Below, one piece after another: positions 2,649 through 42,000 of a stretch of DNA of 64,000 nucleotides. The translations under genes were made by a program, and so were the position numbers. Numbering within the stretch: the first letter of the stretch is position 1; each line of letters starts with the position of its first letter. The stretch comes from Acanthaster planci (taxonomy: Eukaryota): assembly GCF_001949145.1 (NCBI RefSeq), contig NW_019091356.1, positions 1,116,789 to 1,180,788 on the forward strand, given 5' to 3'. The notes beneath the pieces are model-generated. The model made no database searches. It was not told the DNA's origin and saw only the letters and a program-made list of their open reading frames with translations.

Positions 2649-2951
<303 letters not shown>

Positions 2952-8270: not shown

Positions 8271-9656
8271 TCACCAGTAGCTCAGGAACGTTATAGTACC
8301 AGGTGATTCCGGAGAGGCAGTAACCAGACGAGTATCATTCATCCACATGGTGTGCACCAGACTAGGGTTCCGATGAACCACATTCAGCAGGTCCCCGTTC
8401 TGGGCATCCCAGACGACGATCTTTTTCCGATCACCCCCTGACACCAACCTGTTGCCACGGAGACACATGCAACGCACAACTCCAATGTGCTCACACATGA
8501 CCCTCAGAAGTTCGCCCATGTGGGTCCACAGTCGTATCGTGCTGTCTGCTGACCCAGACGCAATGACGTTCTCATTGAAACACAGGCAGTAAACGTCCCC
8601 GTCATGGCCCTCCAATGTCCTCAGACATTCCCCGGATTGTGTGCTCCAAACCTTCACCAGGCCGTCCCCGCTACCGCTCACCACAATTCTCTGGTCAAAC
8701 TGACAGCAGAAGACAACCTCGGTGTGCCCCTGCAAGGTATGTAGGCATTCCCCCGTGTGACTGATGTCCCACAACCTCAAGGTCGTATCCCAGGACGTGC
8801 TCACAACCAGGTTACCATGGCAGCTCAGAGCCTCAATGTCGTCACTGTGTCCTCGGAGTATCTGGGTACAGATTCCTTGAGATAGGGACCACACCCTTAT
8901 GGATCGGTCATCAGATGCACTGACGACAGTCTCTCCTTCAACACATAGACACTGCACTCCTCGTTCATGGCCACTGAATACCATTTGACACAGCCCACTC
9001 TTTACATCGTAGACGCGGACAAACCCATCCGAGCAACCAGTCATAACAATGCCGGTTTTCAGTCTCAAGCAGGTTACTGAGTCTGTGTGCCCTTCCAGCA
9101 CGCGAGTACACTCGCCGCTTACAAGGTCCCACACACGAACCGTCTTATCCACGCTTCCACTGACCAGCACGGTTCCGTCGCAATCCAAGCACGTCACTTT
9201 CTCCCGGTGTCCCCGCATCACTGGTGCTACCCGGTAACGCCCTCGACACCAGTTGCGCTCCAGGTGCCACGCCCTCATGTACACCTGCTTCCATTTGCAG
9301 GTTGGTGACAGGACTTGGTGCCCGGTCAAGATGTTGTCAAAGTGGAATGTTGGGGTGGTGTGGGAGATGTCTGTGAATGATGGACTGAGGGGCACTTCTC
9401 GGCTCAGGTTGGTGACAGTGCCATAACGCTGCCATCCTCTCTCTTTACAGAGCCCAGACCAAAGCGCATCACTGTTTGCCCTCTCTCTCCATGCCCGTGA
9501 GCACAAGGCAGCCCGGCACAGGTCCTTGGCAGACAGAAAACCAAATATTCTTTCTGTCAGTTCTTCTGGAAGCAGAGCTGGGATTTCCAGCGTCAGGAAT
9601 GCCTTCACGTCATCAATCAACGACGCCAACAATACTTTCTCTTCATTCTCGCCCAT
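8271..9656 (-). CDS. F-box/WD40-repeat protein (SCF substrate adaptor; FBXW7/beta-TrCP-like architecture), CDS in a single exon
   Basis: The 463-aa ORF in the track starts at a TTG; the first ATG is at 9656, with an in-frame stop at 9671-9669 upstream. F-box LLPEELTERIFGFLSAKDLCRAALCSRAWRERANSDALW is followed by about 7-8 GH...WD/WS/WT repeats. Acceptor ttttgaatttcAG at 9733-9731. Confidence 0.93.
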   Translation of the reverse strand: MGENEEKVLLASLIDDVKAFLTLEIPALLPEELTERIFGFLSAKDLCRAALCSRAWRERANSDALWSGLCKERGWQRYGTVTNLSREVPLSPSFTDISHTTPTFHFDNILTGHQVLSPTCKWKQVYMRAWHLERNWCRGRYRVAPVMRGHREKVTCLDCDGTVLVSGSVDKTVRVWDLVSGECTRVLEGHTDSVTCLRLKTGIVMTGCSDGFVRVYDVKSGLCQMVFSGHERGVQCLCVEGETVVSASDDRSIRVWSLSQGICTQILRGHSDDIEALSCHGNLVVSTSWDTTLRLWDISHTGECLHTLQGHTEVVFCCQFDQRIVVSGSGDGLVKVWSTQSGECLRTLEGHDGDVYCLCFNENVIASGSADSTIRLWTHMGELLRVMCEHIGVVRCMCLRGNRLVSGGDRKKIVVWDAQNGDLLNVVHRNPSLVHTMWMNDTRLVTASPESPGTITFLSYW

Positions 9657-17190: not shown

Positions 17191-18637
17191 TTTAAGAGTT
17201 TTTAACTTGTTCTATCGATTAATTTTAGTCGAAGAAGTGACACTCTTCATTTTATTTGCATTTTTGCTTTACAACAATTACCTGTTCTTCGGACTTTCCT
17301 AGACAAAGAGTTTACTAACGGAGTAAGTTAGAAATGAATTAATTTTTAATTTTAAGAGTTTGAAAACAGGATTAAGACTGGTTTAGGCACGCAGCTGTGT
17401 GGAGGTACCGTATACTAGGTTGGTGTCAGTGATTTTTGTTAGTATCTTTAGATCGTCATTGTTTTTCATTGTTTGATGTCGATTGCCAATAAACTCCACA
17501 TACCCTGCCTCATATCTTTGTAAGTCCTTTGTATTTGCTCCTTTGCTTACTTTTGTTCACTTGTTGGGATGTTACGTTCNTTTGTTTTCTACGTCTTGTA
17601 TGTTTGTATCTGTCTGTTTTATAAGTTGTCCTGTTTTGTCTGTCTCTGTGTCTTGGGAAAAGTTGCAATGTTGTAGTTGGACAGCCTCTCGACATGTTTA
17701 TTGTATAGCTTTTTAGGCAATCCTCAAGTCCGCATAATGATACAATATTTTTTTCAATTTTTCGTTTAACGGTTCTCTGTGTCTTAACCTCTTGTAGTTT
17801 GTCCTTTTCACCTTCTTTGTCTGGTCGCTTAATCTTACAAAATTGATTTTTAATACTGTTATAATATTTGCATTTTTCAATGTCCTGTATTTTGCCTGAG
17901 AAAATCAGCTAAAAATAGTTTTGCACAGACTTGGTCTCCCTTGGAATGACAAAATCAGTTCATATATTTTCATTTGTCGTAGAAATTGGAACACAAAGTT
18001 TGAAATAATTTCAGCTCACGCATGTCTTTGCATTATTTTAAACATGTAATCGTTTAAAATTAAACTCCTTTTGGATATAATCGTGCGTCAGTGTTCAGAA
18101 AGTGTACCCGATAACGTATTTCTGTGTCTTGTTATTAACACCAAAATGTGTCATTGTCTCTCAGTTTATTAACACATCAACACTACAACAAAGTGTCACA
18201 GGAAGGCGTTTAAAAGGCGTGCAAACATTAACTGTTATACTTGTTTTTAGGGTGTATATAAAGAAGTCAAGGACTGAGAAAAACCAAGCGCTTTTACAAA
18301 AAAATAAAGTCACATTAACACAATCAATTAACAGTTTGTGTAATTGATGCTTTTCAAACACAATAATTAACATTATTAAGACGTCTATTACTTGAACCTC
18401 GAAATAAAGCAGCAAAGTTTAGCCAGCGTAATGTTCACATTGATTCATTGCACCTTTCCTTTTGCACATAAATATACTCAAGCAAGCAAGTGCGGAATCT
18501 ACTATTTGCAATTATTCATAAAATCTGTTCCCTGTCTTTCGTGTTTCCAATTAAATAATTTGTACAATCTTGTTTAGACCTCATTACCATAGAAGAGAAG
18601 TGTGTACTTTGAAATCAAAGATGGCGCCATCATGACG

Positions 18638-19081
18638 TCACTCCGAGTCCTTATATAGTGGCTTTATGAAATTCCGTTTTCCTAGCGTTTGCGGGGCGCG
18701 ACACATCCAGATCCAGCCATCCAGAGCTTGCGTGTACTCGTTCCAGACGTTGTCATCTAAGATTGCCATTTGTGCTGGATCAAGATGGCGCATACGGCCC
18801 ATGAGCTTGTCCAGTTGGCTGTCGGTATAGGAGGGCGAGATCACGATGGTGGAGTCATTGAGTATATCGGCTGCAATCGCAGACAGGTCATCCAGGTGTT
18901 GACGATATGTGTTCATAATGATAGGCCGGTCGCTATAAGCGCATTGACCCTTACAACGCATGACCTGAGTGGCAAGGACACATGCTGCTAGACACACCAG
19001 AAGTGTGTGAAAGGACCACTGGTGACCACGTCCATGAACTTGCCTGATATAGGAGCCCACAAGAGTAATTCCACCAGCCAT
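18638..19081 (-). CDS. Small secreted protein, family member A1 (147 aa): signal peptide, C-x79-C core, QTL-GKR amidation/cleavage site
   Basis: Acceptor tttcactacAG at 19102-19100, 18 nt before the ATG. Hydrophobic TLLVCLAACVLA, then QCAYSD...WIWMCRAPQTLGKR. GC-richer than its flanks and alignable with the ORFs at 44.7 and 52.1 kb. Confidence 0.85.
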   Translation of the reverse strand: MAGGITLVGSYIRQVHGRGHQWSFHTLLVCLAACVLATQVMRCKGQCAYSDRPIIMNTYRQHLDDLSAIAADILNDSTIVISPSYTDSQLDKLMGRMRHLDPAQMAILDDNVWNEYTQALDGWIWMCRAPQTLGKRNFIKPLYKDSE

Positions 19082-19457
19082 AGTTTGTGGTTCTTGACTC
19101 TGTAGTGAAAGACAAACAAAACCGAAAAATGTAAAATCTTATAATTGTGGGCAAGAGTGGAAAGTATAGGTGTTGTAAGAAACATTTTATTCAATCTGTT
19201 TATTCTAAGTCGACTCAATTAAAGTCCAACGAAACGAAAGCACAGGATTAGATAACTAATAATAAAACAGAGCCCCCCCCCAAAAAAAAAACTGCTACCG
19301 AATGCTTAGTGATGCAAATGACCTCAAATGTACAAGTCTTAAAATTAAGGTGGTCCGACGTTTTGATCACTGCAGAATCTTTCTGAAATGACCTGGTCAT
19401 TAGGAAAGAGTAACACTTCCCAACAGAAATCGAATATTCGTGTATGAGATTCAGCAT

Positions 19458-19607: not shown

Positions 19608-21197
19608 AGTCTGTACTCAGCGGCTTGATTAAGGAAATACATATGTGTTGGCTGAATTTTCCCCTTCTCTCATTACTTAAAAAACCAAAGGAGGGAGGGG
19701 TCGACTCCTGAGGGGCGTGGCCCCTGGCGTCATCCACCCACTATCCGTCTTTGAGAAGTGGTTCGCACGCACGCACGCATTGACGCATGCACGCAAGTAT
19801 ATTAACTAATAATAATAATAAATACCTAGGTACCAGTACGTATAATAACACTTCGCAGGATCTACCCAATAGTTTTCACGTCACTATATAGGTACGTCCT
19901 ATTTTTCACATACCTGAGTAAGTACATAATGTGATTACTATAAGTATCATTCATCCTATAGCATCGATATAATTCATGCAGCCATCTATGAGAGATGTAT
20001 TGCCGGTATTAACCGAACTAATACAGAATGCCTGGTGACAAAATCTTTATTTATTTAAGCCAAGCTAGTGTGCTTCTGGTTAAAAACAACGTGTGCCCCC
20101 AATTTCTAATACATTCTTAGAAAATTTGACTTCAGGTTATTCTCAAACCCGTCCACATTCTCAATCCACTTGATATCATATTTTACACCCGGAAGAGTAG
20201 TGTCAAGTCATTGGTTTTAGACCTAAATAAAAAAATGAAATATTTATTTTCTCTAACTGTTGGAGACGGGCGTTCATTAAGGGAAGTTGGCGAAATGAAC
20301 ACAGGATTTAGAATTTTATGTCGAAAACAAAAACACCCTTTCGGGGGTAATCCTCTTTGGGGGCGGGGACACAATTCATGACTGGGGTGCAGAAAAAGAA
20401 ATTTCAACGATATTATGCCATCAAACCAAAGTATTGACAATTCTCTCTTATTTTGGCTTCNGGGAAGTGCCTTGGACTATGTTACTCAAGCATGATTAAT
20501 TTGCATAACATTCCTTGCCACTATGTATTCTCTGACAAATTTGGTTTTGAATAGCCCTCTACACTCTGCAGTGGGTGTGTGGGGACAAACTCAAATCTGA
20601 AAGTAACTCTTAGCCCAATAATTTTTCTTTCTACCAATATTTATATAACCACGGTTTTCACACATTTCCCAACTTGTGATGTTAATGTAATATAAACATG
20701 ATTTATAAACTTCTCACATTGTGACAGCGTGCAAACATTAACTGTTATACTTGTTTTTAGGGTGTATATAAAGAAGTCAAGGACTGCGAAAAACCAAGCG
20801 CTTTTACAAAAAAATAAAGTCACATTAACACAATCAATTAATAGTTGTGTAATTGATGCTTTTCAAACACAATAATTAACATTATTAAGACGTCTATTAC
20901 TTGAACCTCGAAATAAAGCAGCAAAGTTTAGCCAGCGTAATGTTCACATTGATTCATTGCACCTTTCCTTTTGCACATAAATATACTCAAGCAAGCAAGT
21001 GCGGAATCTACTATTTGCAATTATTCATAAAATCTGTTCCCTGTCTTTCGTGTTTCCAATTAAATAATTTGTACGATCTTGTTTAGACCTCATTACCATA
21101 GAAGAGAAGTGTGTACTTTGAAATCAAAGATGGCGCCATCATGACGTCACTCCGAGTCCTTATATAGTGGCTTTATGACATTCCGTTTTCCTAGCGC

Positions 21198-21590
21198 TTA
21201 CGGGGCGCGACACATCCAGATCCAGCCATCCAGAGCTTGCGTGTACTCGTTCCAGACGTTGTCATCTAAGATTGCCATTTGTGCTGGATCATGTTGGCGC
21301 ATACGGCCAATGAGCTTCTCCAGTTGGCTGTCGGTATAGGAGGGCGAGATCACGATGGTGGAGTCATTGAGTATATCGGCTGCAATCGCAGACAGGTCAT
21401 CCAGGTGTTGACGATATGTGTTCATAATGATGGGCCGGTCGCTATCAGCGCATTGACCCTTACAAAGCATGACCTGAGTGGCAAGGACACATGCTGCTAG
21501 ACACACCAGAAGTGTGTGAAAGGACCACTGGTGACCACGTCCATGAACTTGCCTGATATAGGAGCCCACAAGAGTAATTCCACCAGCCAT
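21198..21590 (-). CDS. Small secreted protein, family member A2 (130 aa): near-identical to A1 but ends at CRAP*
   Basis: ATG at 21590, acceptor at 21613-21611. Ten substitutions versus A1 over the homologous 444 nt, including CAA>TAA four codons after the second Cys. Confidence 0.8.
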   Translation of the reverse strand: MAGGITLVGSYIRQVHGRGHQWSFHTLLVCLAACVLATQVMLCKGQCADSDRPIIMNTYRQHLDDLSAIAADILNDSTIVISPSYTDSQLEKLIGRMRQHDPAQMAILDDNVWNEYTQALDGWIWMCRAP

Positions 21591-23030
21591 AGTTTGTCGT
21601 ACTTTTGACACTGTAGTGAAAGACAAACAAAACCGAAAAATCTAAAATCTTATAATTGTGGGCAAGAGTGGAAAGTATAGGTGTTGTAAGAAACATTTTA
21701 TTCAATCTATTTATTCTAAGTCGACTCAATTAAAGTCCAACGAAACGAAAGCACAAGGATTAGATAACTAATAATAAAAAGAGAGCCCCCCCCCAAAAAA
21801 AAACTGCTACCAAATGCTTAGTGATGCAAATGACCTCAAATGTACAAGTCTTAAAATCAAGGTGGTCCGACCTTTCGATCACTGCAGAATCTTTCTGAAA
21901 TGACCTGGTCATTAGGAAAGAGTAACACTTCCCAACAGAAATCGAATATTCGTGTATGAGATTCAGCACAACCTAAAGGCCCGCTTCATACTTCGTGCAA
22001 AAGCGAAAACGAACCCGACTTTGTGACGTCAGATCAAATATTTGCTTTGCGAATGCGTAGAAGTTGAACACATTTCATTAATTGGAGTTAATTTTCGTTG
22101 TAAATTTTGTCGTGACGTCAAATTCGCTTTTCGCCTGAAGCACGAATAGGCCTTAAGTCTGTACTCGGCGGCTTGATTAAGGAAATACATATGTGTTGGC
22201 TGAAGTTTCCCCTTCTCCCATTACTTAAAAAACCAAAGGAGGGAGGGGTCGACTCCTGAGGGGCGTGGCCCCTGGCGTCATCCACCCACTATCCGTCTTT
22301 GAGAAGTGTTTCGCACGCACGCACGCATTGACGCATGCACGTAAGTATATTAATTAATTAATAATAATAATAATAAATACCTAGGTACAAGTACGTATAA
22401 TAACGCTTCGCAGGATGTACCCCATAGTTTTCACGTCACTATATAGGTACGTCCTATTTTTCACATACCTGAGTAATAATACATAAGTACATAATGTTAT
22501 TACTATAAGTATCATTCATCCTATAGCATGGATATAATTCATGCAGCCATCTATGAGAGATGTATTGCCGGTATTAACCGAACTAATACAGAATGCCTGG
22601 TGACAAAATCTAATTTATTTAAGCCAAGCTAGTGTGCTTCTGGTTAAAAACAACGTGTGCCCCCCAAATAAATTTCTAATACATTCTAAGAAAATTTGAC
22701 TTCAGGTTATTCTCAAACCCGTCCAGATTCTCAATCCACTTGATATCATATTTTACACCCGGAAGAGTAGTTTCAAGTCATTGGTTTTAGACTTAAAGAA
22801 AAAAATGAAATGTTTATTTTCTCTAACTGTTGGAGACGGGGCGTTCATTAAGGGAAGTTGGCGAAATGAACACAGGATTTAGAATTTTATGTCGAAAACA
22901 AAAACACCCTTTCGGGGGTAATCCTCTTTGGGGGCGGGGACACAATTCATGACTGGGTGCAGAAAAAGAAATTTCAACGATATTATGCCATCAAACCAAA
23001 GTATTGGCAATTCTCTCTTATTTTGGCTTT

Positions 23031-24002: not shown

Positions 24003-24075
24003 ATTGGTAAAGCTCTGGTACGGTGTTCCAGAGGTCGCAGGTTCAAATCCCGCTCCAGTCAATTTGTTTGTTCAT
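24003..24075 (+). mobile_element. tRNA-derived SINE fragment
   Basis: ttggtaaagc (partial A-box), ggttcaaatcc (B-box), then a T-rich tail; no complete cloverleaf. Confidence 0.65.
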
Positions 24076-27006
24076 CTTTGTAATCATTATATAGTTGACA
24101 GAGAAAAAAATTTCATGCCATCTAATGTCATGTCTGGGACACCGTGCATTACTTGTTCATTTTTTATTTCATATTTCCTTAACTGGGCGCATTGTGAAGG
24201 AAATTTGGCAACCGTCACGGATACGTTATAGTCAGACGAAACCTAATAAGTCACGAAGATGCGACATTACGGTATTGATTGTAACCATAATTATCATGTT
24301 GACAAGATGTCCCTACGTCTACAACTCAGAAAGGTTCTAAATTATTCGTAACACTACAGATGATTTCCAAAGTCAATTTCTCGGTTGAAGAGTTTTTTGG
24401 GTACTATCTATAAATTATCTATAATTTACCATGCTCACATAATGGGGGCACGATTTTTTTATCGAACAACCTTGCCTCGCTTCTGGCTATTTGTTGAAAT
24501 CGGATTTAATTATCCACGAAATGAAGGCGGGACATTAATAGTAATTAAAGGTGGGAATGGTGTGCAGACTCTCGAGTGAATTCACCGAGTTCGCAAACCT
24601 TTTCAACCTTTTTAACCCTTTGACAATGAGTTTATAGCAAATACGAGGCTTTGGGGTACGTTGTAGAATAGGTAGGTTGTTAATTGACCGATTGAGTTAT
24701 TTCTAGGGTGAATTTCCGAGAGCAGAGTAGTTAGGCTTTATCTGCTTAACGATGTCAGGCCTGGTGCTAAATCAAACGAGCATAGGGCGGTAAGATTGAA
24801 CAAAGTGGGCGGAGTAATATACACATCAGGGTTATTGTGTTGTTCTGGTCTCCACCTGTGGCCCCACGTTTAGCAGATCTTGTAATGGGGTAGGTCCTAA
24901 TGGATCCGTCTATTAATGGCTGATGTCGGTGGTTTAACAACTCCCCCCCCACACACACTCTTTTGAAAATAGTTCCGCCGCTGTTGCCTTACTCCTTCAC
25001 AGATGAATCCAATACTTTTTTGGGTAAACACACTGTAGAGATGCGCAGCAATCGAACCACCATCCGTGAAAGGGTTGAAAAGTTTTGCTTAGAAAATTGT
25101 GACAGACATTTAACAATCTTCCAATCAGGCAGCAGCAGTACCTTAACCCTGAGGTTTGTCTAATTTAAATGGTGATCGAATGGAACAGCGCTGATAAACA
25201 AGCTACCAACACGGCTACACTCAGACTATATAAAAATAGTCATGAATAAAACGTGATGTATTTCATGCTATTCCGTCCCAGATTATACAGTTGCGAATGA
25301 ATCATTAATGTTTTTTAAATCTGATTTTTTATGTTATGTATTTTTAAGGGGTGAGACATTGACGCTGTTTTCAAATGCAGAGTGACTAAAATTAATTGAA
25401 CCTTATTTGATTTTGAAGTGATTTGGAGAAAGAATACTTCGAAACTAAGCTGCGTTTCGCCACCACAATTTCCGCCTGTGATTAATGTTTACATTAAATA
25501 CCACGAAAACTACAATTTAACTTGTGACAAAAAAACACGCACCGATCCACTAGCCCCATGGGGATGCTATTATGTCGGCAAATAAATAAAACTAAATCTA
25601 AGAAGAGGAGCAAAAAAGTTTTTTTCCCTTGCGACAGGAGCTACATGCCCTGTGTCTCAGACGAGACCATTACCGTAACCAGGCGCTTTTATGACAAGGC
25701 ACGCTCGCTCCTCAAAATTATGTCAGCTGGAAAGTATCCAGCCGTAGAATTCAGTCGTCCAAACGCAAAGTTCTAAGAATGCATTTGCATGGATCAAGGG
25801 AGTGATTTTTATATAATGAATACATTAAACAGTGCTTTAGCGCTCTTTATTATATCAAAATCAAAATTAATCAAAATAACTTTGCCCTTGGTATCCATTT
25901 GACATTTTTCTCTCATAAATCACAACAGGCCAATCCCCCCACAAAAAAAAAAAATACACAAACCTGGTAATGTTGTAGAAATGAATAATTATATGAACTG
26001 TTGATCAAAATCATTTCAGTTAGATCGCATTTCAGAAATAAATGCTAGAAATAGTTTGGAAAAACATGACGGACGGTTAAAAAGTTAAGATTTTGAAATT
26101 TTCATGCGTTTTGATAACACTTGGTGACACAAAAACAAGTTAACATTCCACATCTCTGCCCGCCAAATTCCCCTTGGGTGTACTTGGCTTTGACAAACTA
26201 AACGGCTCGCTGTAAACGCATAACTTTATGACAGGAGTTCTGTACAAAATAAGTAGCCACTGATGTAGCAAGCAGACTACTGTTCTTGATTGAGAAGACG
26301 CACATAACATGGCACACATATATACAATGGTGAGAAATTTTGTGACCTGCTGTTTCAAAACCAGGCTGATCTCTTGAAAGTCTACATTTTGGCTGCAGAA
26401 GGGTATATACCGGTAGTGAGGCCTCTAAAAAGGCAGTGAAAACATAAACAGTGGAAGTTCCACTTTTTTCAGCCTAGTTTTGGGGTAGTGGGTCACATGG
26501 AGATCACGAGTGGGGTTCATCCTTTTCTTGAGTACTTGATAAAAATGTAATGCGCGTGAAAAATGGCCCATGGAGTACATGTATATAGGACACTACCCAA
26601 CAATATTTGCTTCAGAAAAGCTACTGAGGATGATGCAAATTAACTGGTCAAAAGTGCCTGATTATTGCGTCTTTGAAAAAAAAATTGGGGGGAACAAGGA
26701 AATACTACACTTTGCCATAAATTACACAGCTAAAAAAATTTTACCGTCTCTCTGAGAATTTTTGATATTCTCATAGTAGCTAGTGAATTGCTTAGTACAG
26801 CTCTGCATTAACTTGAATACTGGAACATCTACCAGCGCTATATGCCCTGGGTGTCATAGAATATATGGCATGGGGGCTTAAAACCTTTGAAACATTGCAT
26901 CTTGCCGGCTGCTGTTTTATATTACCCCCGCTCATGAAATGACAATAGTTGAAGATTAATCTTTGGGATGAGGGAAAATGATTTCATTTGTCTGTCTCAA
27001 GCTTAC

Positions 27007-27220
27007 CTGAGTTTCCTCTCAATCGCACGCCTTAACGATTTTCCCGGGTTGTGTGATAGTGCTGGCCTCCGGCTCGAGACTGTTGAAACAATACCCGATG
27101 TGTCTGGTTGTCAATCGAAGACAGCAAGCCAAACCGACGGGTAGGACCGACAATGTGCAGTTTGCAACAGCTAGATAGTTTACTTCGAAGTACCTTTCCC
27201 GTTAGTGACCAGCCAAGGAC
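27007..27220 (-). other. Putative non-coding first exon upstream of A1/A2
   Basis: Strong donor CAG|GTAAGC at 27007/27006, CpG-richer sequence, and TATA-like GATAAAA at ~27248-27242. The link to the A1/A2 acceptors is inferred. Confidence 0.4.
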
Positions 27221-28632: not shown

Positions 28633-31600
28633 CTTCAGCACGTCATAACTTTCTGAAGTTCCATTGTACGCAGTTGTTGAAATCAGCATACATGGAGTTA
28701 GGAGCTCTAAGTTAAGTAGTGGAATCGGGAGTTTTTTTTTATCCTTTTCTCTTGCAAAAAGTGAGCCCCCCAGGTCAGAAAATCCGATTAAAGATTATGT
28801 AAAATTGGTTTAATCAAAAATAACGCCTTAAAGCACGTCTTTTAAGACGTGTGGGGTTTCATGAACCTCAAGCCTAGTTTGTGGCGATTGCTTCAGTATT
28901 AGACATGGAAATTCACAAGTGATTAGTACAACACAAAAGACCCTTTACAACTCTTAAGTGTTAATTTTGAGTCTTAATCAGTAAGTAAGTGGAAATTATT
29001 ACATTCTAAATTAACTTCAGTTTAACCATGTATTTCAAAGTTTCTGGAAGATTTTTGCAGACTTTTTGAATGTCTGTTTTGGGCTAGAAATAAAAAAAGA
29101 TGAGCAAATAAGACTTTCACAAAGCCCCTCTTTATCAAAACTACTAATACCATATTTCAAATTACCGCAGACTTGCCCACCTAAGTCAACTATCTGTGGC
29201 TTTTTCTGCACATTCAGTTGGGGTAAGGCCTAATTTTCCAGAGAACGGTGAGACATATCTATGTGACTGCCGTGTTTGTTCATCATTTCAGAAAACAGAC
29301 ACGTTTAAAACGAACTAATCTAATGAAAGAGATTTGTGCATGCCAGTTTGAGGGCAGTACTGTTGGTACTGTTCGCACAAACCAACAGTATTTCGTGGAA
29401 AAAAATTCTGTTTGAAGTATACTGGAAATATTTGATTGGTATAACTTATAATTGCGATATTTCTTGATTGAGAATAAATCTACAGTTAAACTTCAGTACA
29501 ATATTGTTCATGTATTGAGTTACGTAGTGGCCGAGGAACTGATTTTTTTTATTAGAACATAAATAAATGCATAAATTTACCATTACATTTGTAACAATTA
29601 TTACATAAACCCAATAAACATGTAATCCGAAGTAATTCTAAACACAATATCTGCACTTTTCAACCCTAGAACAGTTTAAATGTAAATTTACATAATCACG
29701 TTTACTGAGTTATAGGGAAAACTTAGGTATTTGTTTTCTCAGTAAAAATTTACCAAATTTTTATGAACAAACTTACCCAACACCTCTTTGTAAAAATTCA
29801 ATTATCAGAAGGTTCGTATGGCTCCATGCAGTTGTGTAAAATTGTACACAACCTGGGTATTTTTCTCTGTGTGTAGTTATATACATTTAACTTTGACTTT
29901 AATATCATCCTTAAAGGTTTCTGTACCATGAAAGTATATAGCTTAATTCAAAGAATGGAGCATACAATATTGCAAGAAAGAGTAACGCAAGATTTGTTTC
30001 TTTGTTGAATTACAAAATTTTTCTTACATGTGTAAAACCTGTTGTGCTGAGGATTCTGGCTACTCAGATGCTGTTTTGGGGGGAAAACTTGGACAGAAAT
30101 ACAAAATGGCAACATTCAAACTTGAGAAGATAATTGTGATGTACATTATGTGATATGTTTGCCACAATAAGTAAGTGGAATAAAGTGTTATAACTTAATG
30201 ATGAAACAAATCTTAACGCAACAAACGCGACCTTGGACAGCCGAACAGAGAGCCGTATGTAGGCCTACTAAAGTAGAGGATACTGCATTATTGAAACGTG
30301 TGTAGTCTTTGTTATCTTACGAGACACAACTGGAGATACACAAGTAACGAATAGAAAGTATTCTCAAGTAAATTTGGCTCAACGGCAAAAAGTGTTAAAC
30401 TATTCAAAGTGTTAAACAGCAGTCGACTAGTTAAGACCTTGCTGCTGTCTTGAAGCGAGCTGTCGAGAGTCTATAACAATATGCAGCCGTGCTGGTTGAG
30501 TACCCGTATCAAGTGAACGACTGAGTGTCCGAAAACATCGAGTCGACAGCAAGTACCCTCTTCATCCTTGTGAGGGTCACTTAAGACCGGGAAAACCGTG
30601 TGTTTTGGGCTGTAGTTAGCGCTGGGAGGTCTGGCCTGACATGGTTTGTCTGACATGGTTTTGAAACTTCACTCCTCTCGGCTTTCAAATAGTCTGACGC
30701 TTGTGGTAAAGTTAGAATTAAGAAAAAATATGGGGCTAGCCGGTAGACGGGCTTCCAAAATACATGAGGATTAGCCACGCGTGTTACTGAGAGTTAAAGT
30801 AAGAGTCAAAGTAAGATAAATTGCCAATTTTGTGTTGTTCAGCTGGGTAGCAGTCTCAACTGGCTTGAAGTTTGCTACTTCGATTTGCACTCACGTCGTA
30901 ATCCGAGCAACTAAGTAAATGGTCTGTTGATAATTGTAACAGGCGTCGACGCCACACTACGTTGACCCAAAATTATAGCACGACAAAACGTCTACTTGCA
31001 TTTGTGCTTGTTATCTGTCCTGTAATGTTACTCCATACCGCAATACGCTGAAATACGTTCGCTAACACCCTTCCTGTTTCCCACATCAAAAAATCTCCCC
31101 AAACTAAGACCGAATATTGTTATGGCAACAATTAACAGACAAATCGAACTTCATGACATATGAAGCAAGATAGCACCCCCACCTTTGTGTTGGTCATTGT
31201 TTGATTGGATCCTCAGGAATTCTTTATAGACATGGGGGGGGGAGGTAACAATACTGTAGAGTGTGTACAAGGATCGGACATGTGGGGTGTGCCCCTCTGT
31301 CCCATATCTTGCTTGCGAATCCCATTACAAGAGCCACCTGTTGATATTTTTGATGTGGCTAAAGAAAAAAATAAAATTTGTTTCAAACTAGAAAAAAGAC
31401 ACTACAATGCTAACTAGTGAACGGATAAACAGTATCTCCAGCCAGTCTAGCGAGGCATCATGTTTCATTTTACTTGCCGTTTGCGTGTGCATTTTTCTTA
31501 AAAAGTCGTGGAAGCTCCATGAAATCAATGCCGACGTCAATTTGGCGTCGGGCTTTTGATTCGTTTAAGGATCGACAACAGATTCTGCATCTGCCAAGTT

Positions 31601-33954
31601 TCTTAAAGACAAGGCATGAAGTAAGTTTTAAAAAAATGAATACATACTGCTGTGGGGGCCAGATTATAATCTCAACTTTTTGGTGAAGGCCTGATCTTTT
31701 TTATGAGTATTTGTGAAGTTTCAATTCTAAANCAGGTACAAAATTAAAATCATTTAAAACAACCAAATCTTTTTAAACGACTACATTTGAAAGTTGAAGA
31801 AACTGCAGACAAACAAAACTGTCCCTGTATAGCTGAGATTGGGAAGGAGCTGAGGGACTGCACAAATACAATTTCTGGTTTAAGGCTTTACGAGCGAATT
31901 CTGAGGGAAATTATCATTATCAAAAATCATTTTCACCAGCAATGCCACCTGTCAATAAGGAGCATTGTGTTCCTGGTGCATGCCACTCATTAAATAAATC
32001 CACAATTGCCACAAATTAATACTCAAAAAGAAGAAAAATAAGCTAATTTCTTTTAATTTAAAAGTTACATAGCCGGTTCTTCTTTTCCGATAAATGTCTG
32101 TATGTGAGAAGACGCGCGTTCAACTTAGAGCTTTCTTCACATTTATAAATTACGACCGCATTTTTGACAGGTAATAAGCTGCCAAAGGGTGATACAACAG
32201 ACGCCATATAATCAAATAAAATGCACATGGGATTATACAACACTTCATTCTAAGTGTTGCTTTTGATGAAATCTACAGGAGCCCTGCTTCAATCGTCATA
32301 CCATAGACATACTGAGCACTTTTCCAAGACAAATGGGATCTACAGAAGCTATGCTTGTTATTTGGTTTTGACATCAGACACAGAGCAGACAGAATGTTTT
32401 GTGTGTGTTGGTGCTTTCATATGTATGTTTTCGGTAGCGCAGTCTACCAGTTCTCACCAGCACCTTATAAAAATAGACAGAATATGAATTTGTGGTGGTA
32501 CAGGTGGGCGTATTTGGGATTTTTTGAGGGGGGCATTCGTCTGTGATGACGAACCATTAAAGGAAGAAAGGGGCCAAGTCTGAGGTATTTTAAGCAAATC
32601 TGTCATTTTCATCCTGTCTCTTCGACTTTCCTTTCTCCCCCTTCTTTTCATTCTTCATTTCTGTTCAGGGGGCCACGCCCCCTTGCTTCCTGTGACGCCA
32701 TATTCAAGGCTGCTATGTGATCATAAACCAGTGCGTGGAATGGAAAGGAATCCGTAACACAGAACAGCACAGCAGTTATCCACAATCTTTACTTCATGTT
32801 GCTGGCTTCTTACCTTATGAAAATAAAATAACTTGCTTCTAGCTGGCTTCTAATATACGCAAACGTACTCCACAATGCCAGAACGACATTGGACGAACAA
32901 TATGTCGAACAACCATGTGTCGAACTGCCAACATTGAGAAGACTGGTGCACGCAAGTTCTATTATTTTTGCCAACACTCAGCACGAGTGTGTGTAGACAG
33001 GCTGATAAAACGCCCTCACGAGACAAGTCCCACGCACGAAAATGCATAGATTTTAATGCGCTGACGCTCAGCTTCAGCCTCATCCAGTATTCGCTCGTCA
33101 CCCAGGGCCCCAACAGGGCGCTGGGAAGGGCTAACGACCTTGCACTGTGACTGGCTACATTGTGGACGGCCTGTGACCGTGAGGTTACCATTTCCTGTCA
33201 GCAAAGCTTTATGTAAATCTTTTGGTTCACCAACGGCAATACTTTGGCTAATTGTCAGCCATAAAAACATTTCCTTGGAACAATCACAGTGTGGTAAATT
33301 ATCTTTTCACTACGTATCACTGATCACATGTCTTTTGGCGATCATATTTCAAATCATTGGTTGTGTTGATCATTTTGAATGAATGAATAAAGTGTAGTTA
33401 CAATATTTTCAGTATTGAAAAAGAAAAAGAAAAAATATCGAATTGATAACCACCGCTGGTGTAAGGCATTGAGCGAGCTCGTGCGTCTTTCATAAATTCA
33501 CCCACAATGCTCCGCGCATCTTTAGCTGTGACCTGTGTGACGTATCTCCTACACCGAAATTTGTGCAGAGCCATTAGCCGTTCCCAGTGCTCTGTTCGGG
33601 CGCTGGATGACGAGCGAAAATATAGTACAAAACCGTGTACTAAACGTTGGGGGCGCCATCACCTCCACCTTCCCGGTAAGCCATGTGTCGGCAACATGCC
33701 AAATACGCAAAATAGACAATTAACGATGGACTTCCTTAAAAGGGAGGGTTTGGGAGTTTAAAAGTACGCCCCCGATTCATATTGTAATTAGTGTACGCTC
33801 TCCATCATACATAGAAATTTCCCTTTTAAAAAATTAAAGGGAAGAGATCATTTTTTCCAGATTTTTTTTTTATTTTTATTTTTTACATCAATTACATCCT
33901 GAAAATAGTTCGCGGTACCCGCTGCTTCACCTGACTCGGACCGGCCAGCCGACC

Positions 33955-34045
33955 CCGACAAGCTCGGTGGTCGAGTGGTTAAGACGTCTAGTAAGCAGGG
34001 GGTCGTGGGTTCGAGTTCCGCCCGAGTAAGCTTGTGACTTTTTTC
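33955..34045 (+). mobile_element. tRNA-derived SINE fragment
   Basis: A-box-like tggtcgagtgg and B-box ggttcgagttcc, followed by gtaagcttgtgactttttt; the anticodon arm is not tRNA-like. Confidence 0.7.
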
Positions 34046-35046
34046 GCAAGCTCTCTGACAAGCACTGAGCATACAGTGTTTATTAATATGTACGTTGGGT
34101 AAGGGCAAAACCCGTTATATTTGCAAACAATCAATGACGATATGCGTAACCTACTGATGGATGGGACACATCGATTTACGTTAGCATCACTCCCTTTATC
34201 ATTTTTGTCTTATTCATCCAATAAAATCAGGCAAAGTGCAATAAAAATGCTACTGACAATGAATCTTGGACAGCATGGGCCATCAACGTTAGGCGTGTGG
34301 ATGCCTCTCTGGTCTTGACAAGTAGAAAATAACGTTCAGAAAACACAGAATGTGTCCATTTTTTTATTTTATAAATTTTGTTTGTTGTATAGACAGAGGT
34401 TGCTACTGCTCGCATTGGACAGACACTTGCATACACGTGATCCTGCCCATACCTCACGGACCACGATGCAAGCAGTTCAAGGAGCTGATGGCTAGATCGA
34501 CCGGCGGTTCATTTGTCACCAAGACGTCCCCTGTGATGTGAGGTTCGTTCGGTTCAGTTTATGTTGGCTCATAAAGGGAGCACACTCTGGAGAACTCGTG
34601 GGGAGTGGATGAGGAGGGGAGGGGTAAATATTATCATGATTCATGTTGCTTCATATGTGATTGCCTGCGCCACTCGGTTGCACTTGAAAGAATTACACGG
34701 GCGTCGACCATTAGGAATTTAGGTAGGACTCTTGTTGAGAGTCGAGTTATCAGGGATAGTTATTCTTGAATTATCGGGTTTATTTTCATCCCCTCTCTGT
34801 GTGTGAGTTAGTGCTCCCCTCTTTTGAGCATTCTTGTTCTTTGTACGCAAACACTGCACACTTTAAGTACTTTTTGTTTTGGAGGGCCTTTTTAGTATAA
34901 GGAATGCATTTTCGGGATGTCGAAATCGGGCAGCTCACTGCTCAACTAACAGTTCATCCGTCTGCCAACCCACCCTCTTTCGTTCACAGCGAGTGACAAT
35001 AAATTCAAACAACCTTCAGCTTTGCATGTACCGTTACAATTCTGGA

Positions 35047-36053
35047 CTACACCAGACAGTTCTTAGGCGTTGCAATCAGCAATCTGGCACCGTACGACGT
35101 GTTAGCACCATGGAGTCGGTGAAGCGACTTGATCTCCTGGAGCGACTCCTCAATGTTTATATCTAGACTGAAATTAAAATTAAAATTAAAACACACCTTA
35201 CAGGTATATATTAAGTGTCACTGACTTGAAAGTGGTATTTTTGTCTTGTTTACTGCCAATCTTTTCTTTGTAAATCATAAACGTTCGTAAAACTGAAACT
35301 TTCTCAGAAAAATCTATTCAGACTGGTTTTCGAAACTAACTTTGTGTTGCTCGACTTAAGAGATTTCTGGTCCCTTTTAGATTTAGCGCCACCTCCGTTC
35401 TCAGTTTCTATTTCATTCCAAAATAAACCATTCTCAGCAGATAATAGAAAATTTGTCCAGGCCTAACTTAAAATTGACATATTTCCTCAGATGTTACCAA
35501 AATACCAGTCGTGTTTCCTCTTCTTCCACATTTAGTTGGTCTTGACGTCACTGATGATGGTATCCGATGTGCGCCGATGGTATCCGATGTGCGCCGATTG
35601 AAAGTCCTTTTCATTGTAGCACCAGAATAAACCTCCGCTTTTTTGTGCAAAATAGAAAAGCGTGTGGAGATGTCAACAATTATACTCCAATCAGCATTCA
35701 TCCCCCGACACCCACGCCAGATAGGGTGCTAAGAAGTAGGCAGAGCCATCAGGTGTTCTTGCACCGATGTTAACGTGTAGATCATGCGCACCAGGCGAGC
35801 TGGATTGCGTTTCCCGTCACGCGCAGACGGCACATCGGGTGTCCCGTACACGCCTTCGATACTGCCGTCTCGAGGGCGGAAACAAGTACTTGTGGGCCGT
35901 AATTGGCCGCTTGAGGCCTCGTCGACCCCTCGTCCGTGATGCGTGTGGAGAGAAGGGCAGGGTTACAGGGTATCATATGCCGTAAATTGGGCAAAATAAG
36001 ATGAAACCGTCCGCGTAATAAGCGAGCTGTCTACTCAATGTAAAAGGCGCCAT
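35047..36053 (-). pseudogene. Disrupted member (D) of the small secreted protein family
   Basis: ATG at 36053: MAPFTLSRQLAYYADGFILFCPIYGI*...HKYLFPPSRRQYRRRV. After a frameshift, 35797-35732 reads RLVRMIYTLTSVQEHLMALPTS* (member C has LFLYTVRQFEDRV and RLVRMYYRLREV). A segment at 35167-35047 behind a strong acceptor reads LDINIEESLQEIKSL...PKNCLV* (compare DIEQLVSEV in C and LKNC in B). Confidence 0.55.
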
Positions 36054-39000
36054 TTGGCAGATCGTGACCGAGCGAAGTCTGAACAATATCACCTGTGTCA
36101 TGTAAAGAGTCAGCTGCATATTTCTTAATACGACATTCAATTTGTACCTCCTTCCGTGTGAGGTATGCTCATAGTTCAGGGTAACCTTGTTGGGAGAGAT
36201 TCAGACAATTCCAACTCGGGGTTTTAGCGGCATGTAATTTCCTGCACCTCTATACATGTATTCTTTCAATATTGGTGTGGCTGGAACAAGGTTGCACCTC
36301 CCCTAATAATTGGTTCTATGTCCACCCTTTTGCTGTAAAGCCTTACATGACCTATAACCCGATTCATTTACAGTATTTGCATAAGTCTTTTGCCACTGGA
36401 TTAAGGATTAATGTACAGAGCGGCACAACATCATAGGTCTCGCCCCGTGCACCTCCTTTGGAAAACTTGAAAAACTACGGGTAACTCCAAAACATTGTAG
36501 GTATTCAACAATGAATGGAATCGTTGTTGTTTACTCCATGCCTGATCCTTTTAGGATTGTCAGTTCCGTTCAATGACGTATTTTTCTAATGAAGTAATTT
36601 AAATTGCTCCTGGGATAAATATTTCTTCATAAATGGAACGAATTCGAGAAGCTGTTTTCAACACGCAATCACAGATGTTTGTGGTCATTCTTTGCTTTGA
36701 AAATTATTAAGTATATATTACAAATCAAGTGTTGTTGTTGACAAAGGGGTGTTCCATACCCTCTCCTCCAAGCATCGACTGGCCTTTGACATCAGTCGTA
36801 ACTCACTGCATAATTCGACAATCTCCACCAACTGAATCGGGTATTTGATTCTTTGTTCTAACAGATAACTTTGCATCTTATATCCTCTGAAGCTGAGGGA
36901 GACAAGGGGACATCGTACGGTAAATTTTAATTTCCGTTGCATACGGAGACCGACAATCATGCTGCGCTCGAGAAGATCGATTTCTTCACGGGATCAGATA
37001 AGTGCTGTTTAAGGGCGCGATCCTACGCACTTCGTAAGTATCGATTAATCAACTGTCTGACTGTTTTTTATTCAAGGACAACGATCAGGATTAAACCTTT
37101 AAAACTAAGCCTGTGTGTGAGTGTGTAAACGACTTCAATCGTGGACCTATAACAATAGGGGACAATAGGGTCCACGGTTGCCGAAGAGTCCACGGTTGGA
37201 AAACGTGTACAAAACATATGGGAGGTCTTCCGAAAAAGTTGAAGTATGAACAAAAGAGGAACAATAGGGAGTCTACAAAGGAAGGCGTTTACACACGTGT
37301 GTGTGCGTGAAAAATTCAATGAACCACGCTTTAAGTCAAGCGAATGAGAGCAATTTTTTTATGTGGACAAAAATGTACAAAACAATTATGTGGGCTTTCA
37401 GTTCTCCCACAAACGAGCGGAGAAAGAGGCAATGAAGTCTAGAATTATTCCAGTCATTCTAAGATTGCAAACAGTCAACATAAACAGTAAAAACAAAGCT
37501 CGTAAACTGTGGAACCTTTAGAACTCCAAGACACATGGTATTTTGAGTTGGCCTGATGCCAAGTTTGTATCTGGTGTGGTATCCATTTATTGGGTAGAAA
37601 TGGGTAAAACAAAGAAGAGAACCGAACAGACAACGGTCGTTATTCTCACATGATTAGTCAATTTGGACAAAAATGTAGAGTTTACCTTTGTACAGATACC
37701 CTGACATTGTCCCACTTGTCTAAATCGGGCGAAAGTCAACTTGGAGTAGAAGCTTTTTTCCACAGTGTTTCTGGGTCTGAAGCTTATGACTCGTCAAATT
37801 AAGAAATAAAAAGGAGAGAGCCATCAAATTTCTCTGTCGAAAAATACTGAAAGACGTGTTGGTATTCAGTGCATATTCAGTATTGCCCGGGTGTATGAAT
37901 ATTTGTCACTCGACTGGGCCACTTTTCGCAAATAGTTGACTCAAATTAGGTCCTGCAGGCTCCCGGCATTGTGTCTACCCAGACTTGGGAAATGCATGTT
38001 CCAAGTGTCAGCGACCGCTGTGGATTCTATATACAAAAAACCGACAATCAAAGACGAGACACTTTCCTTTTGCAGTGGCGGTTTCATTCATTATTCAAAA
38101 TAATGCCACTTGCGACTTACCTCCCTCTCCTGTAAGTATAAGCTGTCAAATTGCCCTGATGTTAACCTGCATATTTGCTCAAATAACACCCCATATGGGC
38201 TATATTAGCTGCATTTGGCGTTTTCAGGTTCTCAGAAAAGTGCAACTCCCGCGCGTCCGTAAATGTCAGTCGTAATCACATTTTTTCCAGAAAGAGACCA
38301 CAAGTCGCGCACAACTTGGTTTCGAAATCGCACATAGAGCGGGCTCTTTTGGTGTTTACTTATTGCCACCTTGTGACACTGTTTTGAACCTTAATTGAGA
38401 AATCGCCGTCGATGACCCACACACGTACCTGGTAAAGTAAGTCTCCTTTTTCTGTAGTCTTCAACCCCTCTCGGTCTTCACAACGTGTGCACCCGACGTC
38501 TCTGCTCAGCCGATATGTAGCAGGAGAAGATAATTAGGTCGACTGTAATCATCCAGCACATGAAATGTGTGGTGCTCGGGGTTGATTATCGAGTTGGTTG
38601 TGAAGACACAGAAAGAAAGCTGGAGGCATTTAACATCCCAAACATCACTCAGTTGACATAATTTGTCCGTTAGTAAGGCAAGCAAAGCCCCACTCTTTGC
38701 CTGGTTTGGCGTGCACTTTTGATATTTCAACTGAAAGAACAAGCGATGTTGACATTTTGAGTGATGGATAATAGCTATTACGTTCACTGCGCATTTGGGC
38801 AGTTTCTGATCATGTCAAATTTTGGCAGATTTTTCCCCTGTTTTCTTTCTGCACATTCTACATTGTTAGCGTTTTACACGTCATGATCGTTTTCAGTGTT
38901 GCTTTCGTATTGCTTTTATTTCATCTGCAGTAAGTACATGATTATATACTTTGTTATCTGCCCGGTCATAGACAACAAAAATTAATTCAACGTGAAACAA

Positions 39001-42000
39001 GCCTTCATGAAATAATATAAATAAGATATATAGTAAGATATGTCAGCAAAAAAGCATATAATTTGCATATAAACATTGAGTTGATGAGAAAATACGATTC
39101 TAAACAAAGTAAATAGAAATTGTTTACTCTAAACATTGTTTATATCAAATAAATAATTTAGAATAAATTAAGAAACCAATAATTAGTGGTTTCAAGGTTA
39201 AATTGTTGTGTCCAAATAAATCTTAAGTGGATGAAATTGATAGGTAACCAGCCACTAAGAGCAACACACATCGCAAACATCTTATTTGATATTTTAGTTT
39301 GTAACCCTTTAGTCCATTATTTAAAAAAAAGGTTTGTGTGGATTCTGCACGTATCAATGACGTGAATTGAATCTGATGATTTTCCGTTCGGGGAAAATTA
39401 TAAAACTATCTTCGAATTTAAACAAAAACTCTTCTGTTTGCTCATATCTCAATATCTTACTGCACCTAACAATCTTGTGCGGCTTCTTTAAGTCACGTGG
39501 TTTATTTCCAAAAGCGCCAATCTCCCGCATCATGCAATCCAACCATTACCACGGTTATTAGATGCACCGAGACAGTATCGACCCATTTTCGAGAGCGCTT
39601 CTCTTCTTCGTGGATTTTATTAGATTTTTCACTCCATTATTAATTTGTCAAAGCATCTTTTGTTCGAAATAGCTAGTTTGCCATTGCCCCAGATAAAAGT
39701 AAAATGGGTTTTGGGGTAGGCTGTACGACAAATGAGTTACCTTTACAAAACCAAGTGCAAGGTTTTAGGTCAGTAAAAAAAGAGTAGGTAGATAATTTCA
39801 CGCCGTGCTTTACAAAATGTCATGAAGAAAAACGAGATCATGCAGAGCGTTTCTGCTTCATCTACAAATTAAATGCACACCTGTCAAAATGTAAGAAAAC
39901 TCCCCATCTCAGCTCTTTTATCAAGCCAAAGACTAAAACTGTGTGATTGCCATTTTTCAATTCAGTTCCAGTGGACTAGGCCTTTAAGAAATGCCATAAG
40001 TCGGGATATATTTCATAACGGTTTTACAATCGCCAAATGATGAGATTCTGATGACACGTGTACTTTTGAAAAGAAAATTGTCGTTCAAATTCTACAATTG
40101 TAAAAGCTTTCAACAGCGTTGACCGATTTTGAGAGTCTGAACTTCCAAAATTATGACACGTTTATTGATAATGTCTTAACCTTCAGGGCCTTTGAGACCT
40201 GGAGAAATTAAGAGAGAGGGTCGTTGTGTGTTGACTTGTTAATGTGCTCACTAACAAGATAGTTATCCTGTTACAGAATCTTTCTTGACCTTTCTCCAAG
40301 TCATTTTGGGTAAATATTATCAAATCTCTCCCGAAAGTCCAGAGTTCAAGAGAAAGCACTAACAACTCGAGGCCAAATCATTGTGTAGTTGTAACCCTGG
40401 TGTTTTTCAACGCACACAATTGTTGCCGACTGTGCCAACCCCCATCCTGGTGTTGTTGTGCAATTAAAGAATCCCAGGGTGGGGGAAACAAAACAGGGCA
40501 GAGTGGCTCTACTTGCGTCATCTTGAGCCTTGTTTGTCACCTTGTGTACTTGGCTGTATCGCAGACTTGTACACACTGAACAAAACAGCGACCTGGGGAG
40601 TGGGGACTTGCTCTTAAGGATAGCAGAGGGTGAGCCCACTTCTTTCTCGACAAATAATTAGCAATCACAGAACAAATCCCTAATGGCCTAAATTAACTTT
40701 TTAACAAGCCTTAAATAATTATATGCACGATCAATGAAATCAAGGAAAAGGGACGAAAAAGGAAGTGTGTTTTTACTACGTCACCACGGTCCATATTTGA
40801 CATGCTTTGTATGATTGGGCATTATCTAAAGAGAGAAAATATTTAATTCTTATCTCGTTAGCTGTGTGCGCGGTCTCCTGCGCATTCCTCGCTTCTTTAT
40901 TGTGGTTTGTAACGTGACACCGAAGGCACTGCGGGGGATCCTCATGCATGCATCATACAGAATCATATATCGTGTTCACTCATGTATCTACGAAGACAGA
41001 GAGAGATAGAGAAAAAAGAGACCTTCCACCCACACGGAGCCTTGTCGCTTGGTCTGACCAAAGCCAGGTGTGTTAACAAGACGGGCTAATGTTACGCCGT
41101 ACCAAATGCCTAGAGAATAGCTGCCTTGATATCGCTACAAAGCACTCATTCATCAAGGTCCGCGCTATCGTAGGTAGATAGCTGTGTTATCAATACGATG
41201 CTGGCTAGCGCTTCTGCTTATGGCGATTCCCCCCCCCCATTAATGCTCCCAGCTAAACAAAGAAGATTTGCCACAGTGTTCAACCAGGAAAGTAAGAAAA
41301 GAAGTTTTCCGAAATCGATCAAATATTTGTAAGGGCTTTTGGGGTTTCCAGCAATTACGTTTTAAATACCAAACTGCTTGAAAAAGCGAATAATTACGTT
41401 TAAAAACTTATGGAGGTAAAAAATATCCAGGATTTTTAAAACTTCATTTACCGCAATACTTCCTCGCAAAATCACAAGACTGGATTACAGACAGAGATAA
41501 AAAGTTCTAAATTTACACAGAAAAGGACAAGAAGAGCATTACAAACATCACAACAAATATGAATAAAAATACAATGTTATTACGATAAACAAGGGGAACT
41601 GCAGCAAAATTACTTTCAGGGAATTAGAAAGACAGGTACTCTTGACTGAGATTAAATAATTTCTGCAAGACGATACTCAAAACATCTTATCCTCCGGCTT
41701 GGCCATAAAAATTGTCATAAACAAAACAGACTCCTTGATGGTCGCAATGCTGAGGGTTCCTTCCAATCACATTCAAGACTTTTTTTACAAATACATCATT
41801 GCAGGAAGTTGGGAATTTTCACCCACACTGGACACGAGTCAAGACTTAGTGCGTCACCATTTTCACTGATAGAGGTAAACACGAAAGGTGTCATGGACAC
41901 TTGTATAGACCCTTATAGGATGTCATGTAGCTTCTCTAATACGAAGAGATGTTCTTACCTGATAAATTGCCTGTACGTTTAATTATTTTAAAAAATGCTT

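Follow-up and report, generated by a model that had tools for sequence, protein, structure and literature searches.

Locus and transcript of A1

The window analysed here is a 64,000-nucleotide stretch of the Acanthaster planci genome (assembly GCF_001949145.1, contig NW_019091356.1, positions 1,116,789 to 1,180,788), and all coordinates below refer to it. Its minus strand carries, at 18638-19081, an open reading frame (ORF) of 147 amino acids, here called A1, in which RCKG/QCAY follows a hydrophobic core and the C-terminal end reads CRAPQTL-GKR-NFIKPLYKDSE before the stop. These features, from which a preliminary description had read A1 as the precursor of an amidated hormone, were reproduced letter for letter. 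The transcript consists of three parts:

27007-27133, minus strand: non-coding first exon of at least 127 nt with a canonical GT donor, common to A1 and A2 (a second copy, see below) and seen in X1 and X2 contigs
18638-19099, minus strand: A1 coding exon, with the acceptor at 19099, an 18-nt leader and the entire 147-aa ORF (gene model oki.2.73)
17381-18637, minus strand: 3' UTR of A1, of approximate extent, from an X1 contig (17381-18336) and X14 reads, with poly(A)-like signals

A1 is a real, spliced and expressed starfish gene. Over 536 nt (18567-19102) an X1 contig agrees with the window at every position, after which it departs from the genomic sequence at the splice acceptor, its remainder mapping to 27007-27133. 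The junction between the first and the coding exon is present in both RNA-type contig sets, in X1 contig 3 with no differences and in X2 contig 10 with one. The RNA origin of X1 and X2 is a guess, for which the spliced contigs argue. Donor and acceptor are canonical, and the first ATG lies in a good context. Raw RNA reads cover the ORF to a depth of ~7-16 in X14 and barely in X10; as these reads run in both directions, the strand was taken from the splice signals. Read and contig evidence was drawn from five of 23 runs, with X1, X2, X6, X10 and X14 among those cited.

The genes near A1 are represented by a Smad exon and an F-box/WD40 gene. The former (2649-2948, plus strand) is a last exon encoding an MH2 domain (Pfam E 1.5e-22) with a divergent C-terminus, which we take to be Smad2/3-like; the latter (8274-9656, minus strand) is a 461-aa ORF without introns. 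Exons at 55020-62515 (plus strand) belong to an exchanger-like gene, presumably resembling a Na/Ca exchanger of the NCLX type, two pieces of which were scanned with no significant Pfam match. A short ATG-led frame at 33507-33674 (plus strand) has a hydrophobic start, ends at a GT donor and shows low RNA depth; it is possibly the first exon of another secreted protein. High-copy short repeats of very high read depth lie at 33903-34120, 24004-24084, 31176-31242 and 37118-37272, and the loose ends of some are presumably tRNA-derived.

Layout of the precursor

The precursor divides into segments of 45, 88, 3 and 11 residues, placed as follows:

18947-19081, minus strand: signal peptide, residues 1-45, with a long n-region, a core at ~24-37 and a putative cut site (from hydropathy and a published SignalP Y)
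18683-18946, minus strand: predicted mature protein Gln46-Leu133, 88 aa, with three predicted helices and a sequon at Asn75
18941-18943, minus strand: Cys47, mature part
18701-18703, minus strand: Cys127, mature part
18674-18682, minus strand: Gly-Lys-Arg, predicted convertase and amidation signal, identical in the relative P0001
18641-18673, minus strand: C-terminal tail of 11 aa, 0 of 11 identical to P0001

The hydropathy maximum falls at residues 26-37, and no further transmembrane segment is seen, in keeping with the published table rows for the identical protein (SignalP Y, TM 0; PMC9971248), which bear out the signal peptide predicted earlier. The n-region, previously remarked on as unusually long (~25 aa), proves genuine: the core starts near residues 24-26, and the exon at 27007-27133 contains no ATG and has a stop in the reading frame of A1, which rules out a coding upstream exon and makes Met1 the start. 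Cysteines occupy positions 30, 34, 43, 47 and 127, the last two inside Gln46-Leu133, and the only dibasic pair of the precursor sits in GKR (134-136). At Lys-Arg sites prohormone convertases cut and a carboxypeptidase trims, PAM converts the preceding Gly to an amide, and an exposed Gln cyclises. A Gly-dibasic motif arose anywhere in the post-signal region of A1 in 2.6% of 100,000 shuffles; by itself the motif is modest evidence, and its conservation in P0001 carries more weight.

With pyroglutamate, one disulfide and an amide, the mature protein would have an unglycosylated mass of ~10,096 Da. An N-glycosylation sequon is present in both A1 and P0001, in the loop following helix 1, so this mass would shift if the site were glycosylated. 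The amidated-prohormone interpretation is supported in outline; we infer both terminal modifications (amide and pyroglutamate), the disulfide and the position of the cut from the motifs, and placing the cut after Gly45 is a guess. The label 'neurohormone' for the product is likely to apply.

Conservation of the processing signals

P0001 (ENA, 133 aa) was the sole phmmer match to A1 among 1.84 billion representatives (E 1.4e-21, 43% identity) and is the one relative found over the full length. A word search with A1 gave ten candidates, none of them a relative, and a two-sequence profile search matched one of 199; neither search returned a named Patiria or Asterias match. Identity to P0001 is 14/45 in the signal and 36/88 (41%) in the mature part, and reaches 10/13 over residues 124-136. 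The preliminary description had named, as a check on its reading, a conserved GKR followed by a variable tail in orthologues; in this one relative GKR is kept (3/3) and none of the 11 tail residues is shared. Also kept are Arg-Cys-x-Gly-Gln-Cys at the proposed cut and the C-terminal Cys, with a Cys gap in the mature part of 78 residues in P0001 (mature length 86 aa) versus 80 in A1. P0001 has an internal tribasic site that is absent from A1, and its GKR is followed by additional basic residues. P0002, from the cluster of P0001, diverges ahead of the last Cys and lacks the C-terminal part; it was excluded from the identity counts and included in the folding alignment. A peak of conservation at the predicted amidation site, with none beyond it, would, as far as one relative indicates, be expected of a processed, receptor-binding C-terminus.

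A second copy of the coding exon

21147-21610, minus strand: A2, second copy of the coding exon, either an alternative last exon or an allelic haplotig
21198-21200, minus strand: premature stop of A2 at codon 131, which removes QTL-GKR in the window's copy

The segment 18217-20459 recurs at 20727-23029, the two differing by 47 substitutions and 68 gap columns, and A1 (in X1) and A2 (in X2) are both spliced to the same first exon. The A2-like contig of X2 differs from the window's A2 at two positions, one of which is the stop; in X14, four of six reads at this codon are without the stop and two carry the window's letter. At least three mosaic haplotypes occur in X14, so the copy differences are not fixed between A1 and A2. 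At the proposed cut A2 retains Cys-Lys-Gly-Gln-Cys.

A2 occupies a 2.6-kb piece bounded by N at either end, and an N also terminates each of the two copies, a pattern suggestive of an allelic haplotig. The small contig between the N breaks (20462-23030) holds, along with A2, the terminal part of an element present in many copies (20462-20726, at a depth of 61 in X2). Against an allelic origin, the divergence between A1 and A2 (2.1%) lies above the 0.36% between the window and the DNA-type run X6 (51 of 13,983 bases, over eight listed pieces only). A near-zero depth of X6 over A2 was set aside, since record filtering could produce it. A2 is probably an allele, and a true exon duplication is a substantial, if less favoured, possibility. 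The two coding sequences are separated by eight missense, one nonsense and one synonymous change (9 non-synonymous to 1 synonymous). Neutral drift fits these changes (p 0.30) and strong purifying selection does not (omega 0.2, p 0.002), whilst the pN/pS of 2.6 is not significantly above neutral. The comparison shows no sign of strong purifying selection, which is unusual for a conserved hormone.

Published trace of the protein

The A1 protein is identical, letter for letter, to the Acanthaster gene model oki.2.73 in Tables S1 (soluble RP-HPLC proteome of the radial nerve cord) and S4 (secreted proteins) of PMC9971248. The rows available there record SignalP Y, TM 0, no BLAST hit and no Pfam family, and the table gives no cut site. 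As the identifier occurs twice in the supplement file (S1 and S4), it is absent from the gel and neural-bulb tables; the main text never names it. Transcript levels (TPM) among the ten tissues are 19.98 in female nerve, 36.91 in male nerve and 19.53 in spine, followed by testis (3.59), oocyte (3.35) and sensory tentacle (0.83), with 0 in egg, gastrula, mouth and podia. The protein was therefore recorded from nerve cord, and the RNA from nerve and spine. In the same table part, named neuropeptides are much more strongly nerve-biased (nerve versus spine: kisspeptin 93/102 vs 14, MCH 95/96 vs 26, orexin 223/427 vs 12), and they have a podia signal where oki.2.73 has none. The samples were trypsin-digested and the accessible portion of the paper holds no peptide list or error rate, so processing is unreadable there.

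Literature searches with QTLGKR, the gene identifier and the gene C motifs (see below) returned no relevant paper, the one match being an irrelevant scorpion paper, and the supplements of PMC11093393 (apart from files 11 and 12), PMC9759900, PMC11957666 and PMC10448888 gave 0 matches. Apart from the unnamed rows in PMC9971248, the literature searched contains no description of A1; the gene may be listed in the 2017 COTS papers on the neuropeptidome and the genome. The precursor thus appears to be undescribed and, at the level of sequence, to have no detectable link to any named family.

Predicted structure and family searches

The model of mature A1, built from a four-row alignment, has helices at 7-29, 42-55 and 57-83 and a mean pLDDT of 71.7; its two ends are poorly predicted (residues 1-4 and 83-89, pLDDT <50), and each Cys falls within or close to one of them. 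A full-length model (pLDDT 50) was discarded in favour of this one. Foldseek found 0 matches at E<=0.001 with either model, and VIA-align reached a best Z of 7.4, with none of 48,161 chains at Z>=8. The top VIA-align rows, mainly channel pore helices, were read as a generic helical arrangement, and no family was ruled out by them. In channel pore modules the outer helices are antiparallel, so that, indirectly, the two Cys of the model would come to the same end. The Atlas search returned only bacterial hypothetical clusters (0.77-0.78). Pfam gave two weak rows for A1, under the cut-off, and no rows for P0001, ORF B or gene C; a PDB sequence search gave five rows at E 0.15-2.4, all judged to be chance.

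Gene C and ORF B

Two further features of the window resemble A1 at their C-terminal ends:

52113-52493, plus strand: gene C, 126 aa, with a signal-like start and two Cys 82 apart, ending Cys-x2-Gln-Ile-His-Gly-stop
44775-45053, plus strand: ORF B, exon-like, ending Cys-Gln-Pro-Gln-Thr-Leu-Arg-Arg-stop

Gene C lies 33 kb from A1 and has an acceptor-like site immediately 5' of its ATG. It matches a Patiria miniata protein at 78% identity and an Asterias amurensis protein at 66-67% (three matches among 15 candidates), similarities that by themselves mark the window as starfish DNA, and its terminal Gly is kept in all three aligned homologues and in all four further cluster members. Gene C is another candidate for an amidated hormone, with stronger conservation than A1, and did not turn up in the papers searched; it is possibly a distant paralogue of A1. 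In ORF B the amide-donor Gly of A1 is replaced by Arg, and no signal exon for it was found in 34000-44775. Within 44660-45053 (plus strand), ORF B is closely preceded, in another frame, by a hydrophobic stretch that contains a stop. ORF B may therefore be a decayed, degenerate paralogue of A1, which is possible, or the stretch may simply be an acceptor tract.

The pattern Cys-x2-3-Gln-[TI]-[LH]-[GR] has three matches in the six frames of the window (A1, ORF B and gene C) against 0.6 expected (P 0.035), a value weakened by the motif having been defined after the three were seen. Global alignments of A1 with ORF B and four C-type proteins gave z of 3.7-4.3; with interiors only, z ranged from -0.8 to 2.9 between groups and from 0.8 to 2.0 for A1 with ORF B and the C-type proteins. 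A profile-profile comparison of A and C gave a probability of 0.17%, and a search with the A1 profile left ORF B and gene C outside the top 20 of 1,295 window segments. Paralogy of the three is best regarded as no more than a lead, the similar ends hinting at an undescribed family. Under a bolder reading, A1, gene C and ORF B would form a local cluster of diverged paralogues from an unrecognised starfish hormone family, whose members are long three-helix proteins stapled by a disulfide and end Cys-x2-3-Gln-[Thr/Ile]-[Leu/His]; the family would be the invertebrate counterpart of NPGL/NPGM and would provide the missing ligand for GPR83-type receptors of invertebrates. This is quite improbable; if true, A2, the copy with the stop codon, would yield a product lacking the amide, which might serve as a natural antagonist.

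Proposed maturation and alternative explanations

We hold with moderate confidence that the 147-aa product of A1 gives rise to one secreted, hormone-like protein of ~88 residues with a Leu133-amide and one Cys47-Cys127 disulfide, a judgement that covers the whole chain of processing, disulfide formation, regulated release and GPCR activation. Signal peptidase would cut after Gly45 and Gln46 would cyclise. Cys47 and Cys127 would staple the ends of a three-helix body through an intramolecular bond. A prohormone convertase would cut after Lys-Arg, a carboxypeptidase would trim and PAM would turn Gly134 into the amide. Following release through the regulated pathway, the protruding, conserved QTL-amide end may activate a peptide GPCR, in the way that GPR83 is activated through the C-terminal amide of NPGL/FAM237A. 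The gene structure, the transcription, the listing of the protein in the available table of the nerve-cord extract and the processing motifs kept in one relative support this account, and expression that is much less nerve-biased than that of the named neuropeptides counts against it, as do the single full-length relative, the internal tribasic site of P0001 and the A1/A2 differences that fit neutral drift.

A1 may instead be processed alike and be a fast-evolving, non-neuronal secreted effector (defence, cytokine-like or a water-borne cue) of the spine and nerve-associated epithelium. Acanthaster has spine-secreted families with predicted convertase sites, according to the available text of PMC11957666, and the published TPM of oki.2.73 in spine equals that in female nerve, with podia at 0. 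The 9:1 ratio of non-synonymous to synonymous changes between A1 and A2 points the same way, as does a mature part just 41% identical to P0001 when the neighbouring gene C reaches 78% and 66-67% with starfish proteins. However, oki.2.73 is absent from the supplements of two spine-secretome papers (0 in three files and 0 in two) and is not among the oki.327 attractins in the material available, the pN/pS is not significantly above neutral, and conservation is highest at the predicted amidated end, as in receptor ligands. The effector reading is unlikely, although it deserves real weight. Somewhat more doubtful is an earlier signal cut, after Ala37, which would keep Cys43 in the mature chain, make a disulfide-linked dimer possible through the three Cys, and leave Gln46 uncyclised. 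Signal peptidase sites follow a -3/-1 rule, which Val-Leu-Ala before Thr38 fits; Cys43 is conserved in P0001, and the published table rows give no cleavage position. Yet P0001 has Leu-Ile-Ser-Tyr at this point, a poorer site, whereas Cys-x-Gly ahead of Gln fits both sequences and would keep the Cys count even, and Cys-Lys-Gly-Gln-Cys is retained in A2.

As a special case of the favoured account, A1 could be a true but highly diverged NPGL/NPGM (FAM237) orthologue, the ligand of a starfish GPR83-type receptor. The layout, the sizes, the two Cys and the Gly plus dibasic site agree with the published descriptions, a long C-terminal helix ends three predicted helices in both, and GPR83 figures among the receptor types of bilaterians (PMC5818035, as far as its available text goes). 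Set against this, A1 ends in QTL where the accessible FAM237A text makes His78 and Gly79 necessary for GPR83 binding; at most 2/10 core residues are identical in any of seven registers; and the word, phmmer and profile matches of A1 include no FAM237 protein. The Cys spacing of 78-80 also departs from the ~56 that we take to hold for FAM237A. Orthology is improbable. The least probable alternative is that A1 encodes a small secreted protein of an ordinary sort and that its GKR goes unused: a Gly-dibasic motif does arise by shuffling in the 2.6% of cases given above, and processing is deduced from the letters, but identity to P0001 drops from 10/13 up to the Arg to 0/11 past it, and P0001 carries extra basic residues after GKR, making this reading very unlikely.

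Should the hormone precursor account hold, A1 would be a defined candidate ligand for orphan peptide GPCRs, and a candidate signalling molecule added in a coral-reef pest species. Starfish neuropeptide catalogues hold mostly short peptides found through homology or repeats, and a single long amidated product that BLAST fails to match can easily escape them; the present protein is entered without a name in a nerve proteome table (PMC9971248, in the part available). No invertebrate GPR83 ligand is named in the literature searched. With GPR83 being bilaterian and its vertebrate ligands sharing the layout, the question of a GPR83 ligand is directly testable.

Comparison with known systems

Amongst the uncharacterised starfish precursors Arnp11, 15a/b, 18 and 21-25, a signal peptide, dibasic sites, Cys and a nerve origin recall A1; they differ in yielding peptides of 14-76 aa from internal dibasic sites, the long ones with at least six Cys (PMC4772807). 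A1 was rejected as one of Arnp11-25, none of which is described in the available text as a single 88-aa amidated product with two Cys (PMC4772807). The Acanthaster attractins (oki.327 family) share with A1 the genus, secretion, spine expression and predicted convertase sites (PMC11957666). An identification with these was likewise rejected, since the gene model differs (oki.2.73 vs the oki.327 family) and A1 is absent from two supplement files (PMC11957666); the attractin text at hand has 0 occurrences of Cys and of amidation.

A closer parallel lies in the vertebrate NPGL/NPGM proteins, as far as the published excerpts describe them. Their precursors (132-139 aa for NPGM) comprise a signal peptide, a mature protein of 80 or 83 aa with two Cys, Gly plus Arg-Arg, and a propeptide (bioRxiv 10.1101/2023.09.01.552892). 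FAM237A has 80 aa, three helices, one disulfide and Gly plus a dibasic site; its amide and disulfide are essential for binding, and His78-Gly79-Leu80 is critical for GPR83 (10.1101/2022.09.27.509696). Three helices with a long C-terminal one are predicted for NPGL/NPGM (10.1101/2023.05.04.539513; 10.1101/2022.09.27.509696). GPR83 is counted among bilaterian receptor types (PMC5818035; also PMC11521371 and PMC7314547); nothing on it was found in the available part of PMC7041311. Literature searches on FAM237 with amphioxus gave one lamprey paper only, and no description of FAM237 neighbour genes was found in the literature searched.

A1 was compared with FAM237 by published description; its Pfam, word, phmmer, profile and PDB searches gave no FAM237 match. 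In a crude, gapless comparison with the ten FAM237A core residues named in the source at hand, 0-2 were identical across seven ungapped registers, and in the best register up to 6/10 positions were hydrophobic in A1 and 8/10 in P0001. The ends also differ, with QTL in A1 and P0001 and QIH in gene C in place of the published His-Gly-Leu/Met, and unlike NPGL/NPGM, the predicted mature part of A1 begins with Gln-Cys and has its first Cys at position 2, with a Cys gap of 78-80 in P0001 and A1. The likenesses lie in the design. A1 and P0001 share with the described family a signal peptide, a single mature protein of 86-88 aa (80-83 in the family), a Gly-dibasic site and a propeptide. As in the family, the mature part has two Cys (Cys47 and Cys127 in A1, both kept in P0001), with one disulfide predicted for A1, and A1 would have three helices, the last one long, although here prediction is set against prediction and the arrangement is a common one. 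The predicted Leu-amide end of A1 resembles that of NPGL. By analogy, then, A1 appears to be built, and may work, like NPGL/NPGM, a likeness of design rather than of filed membership.
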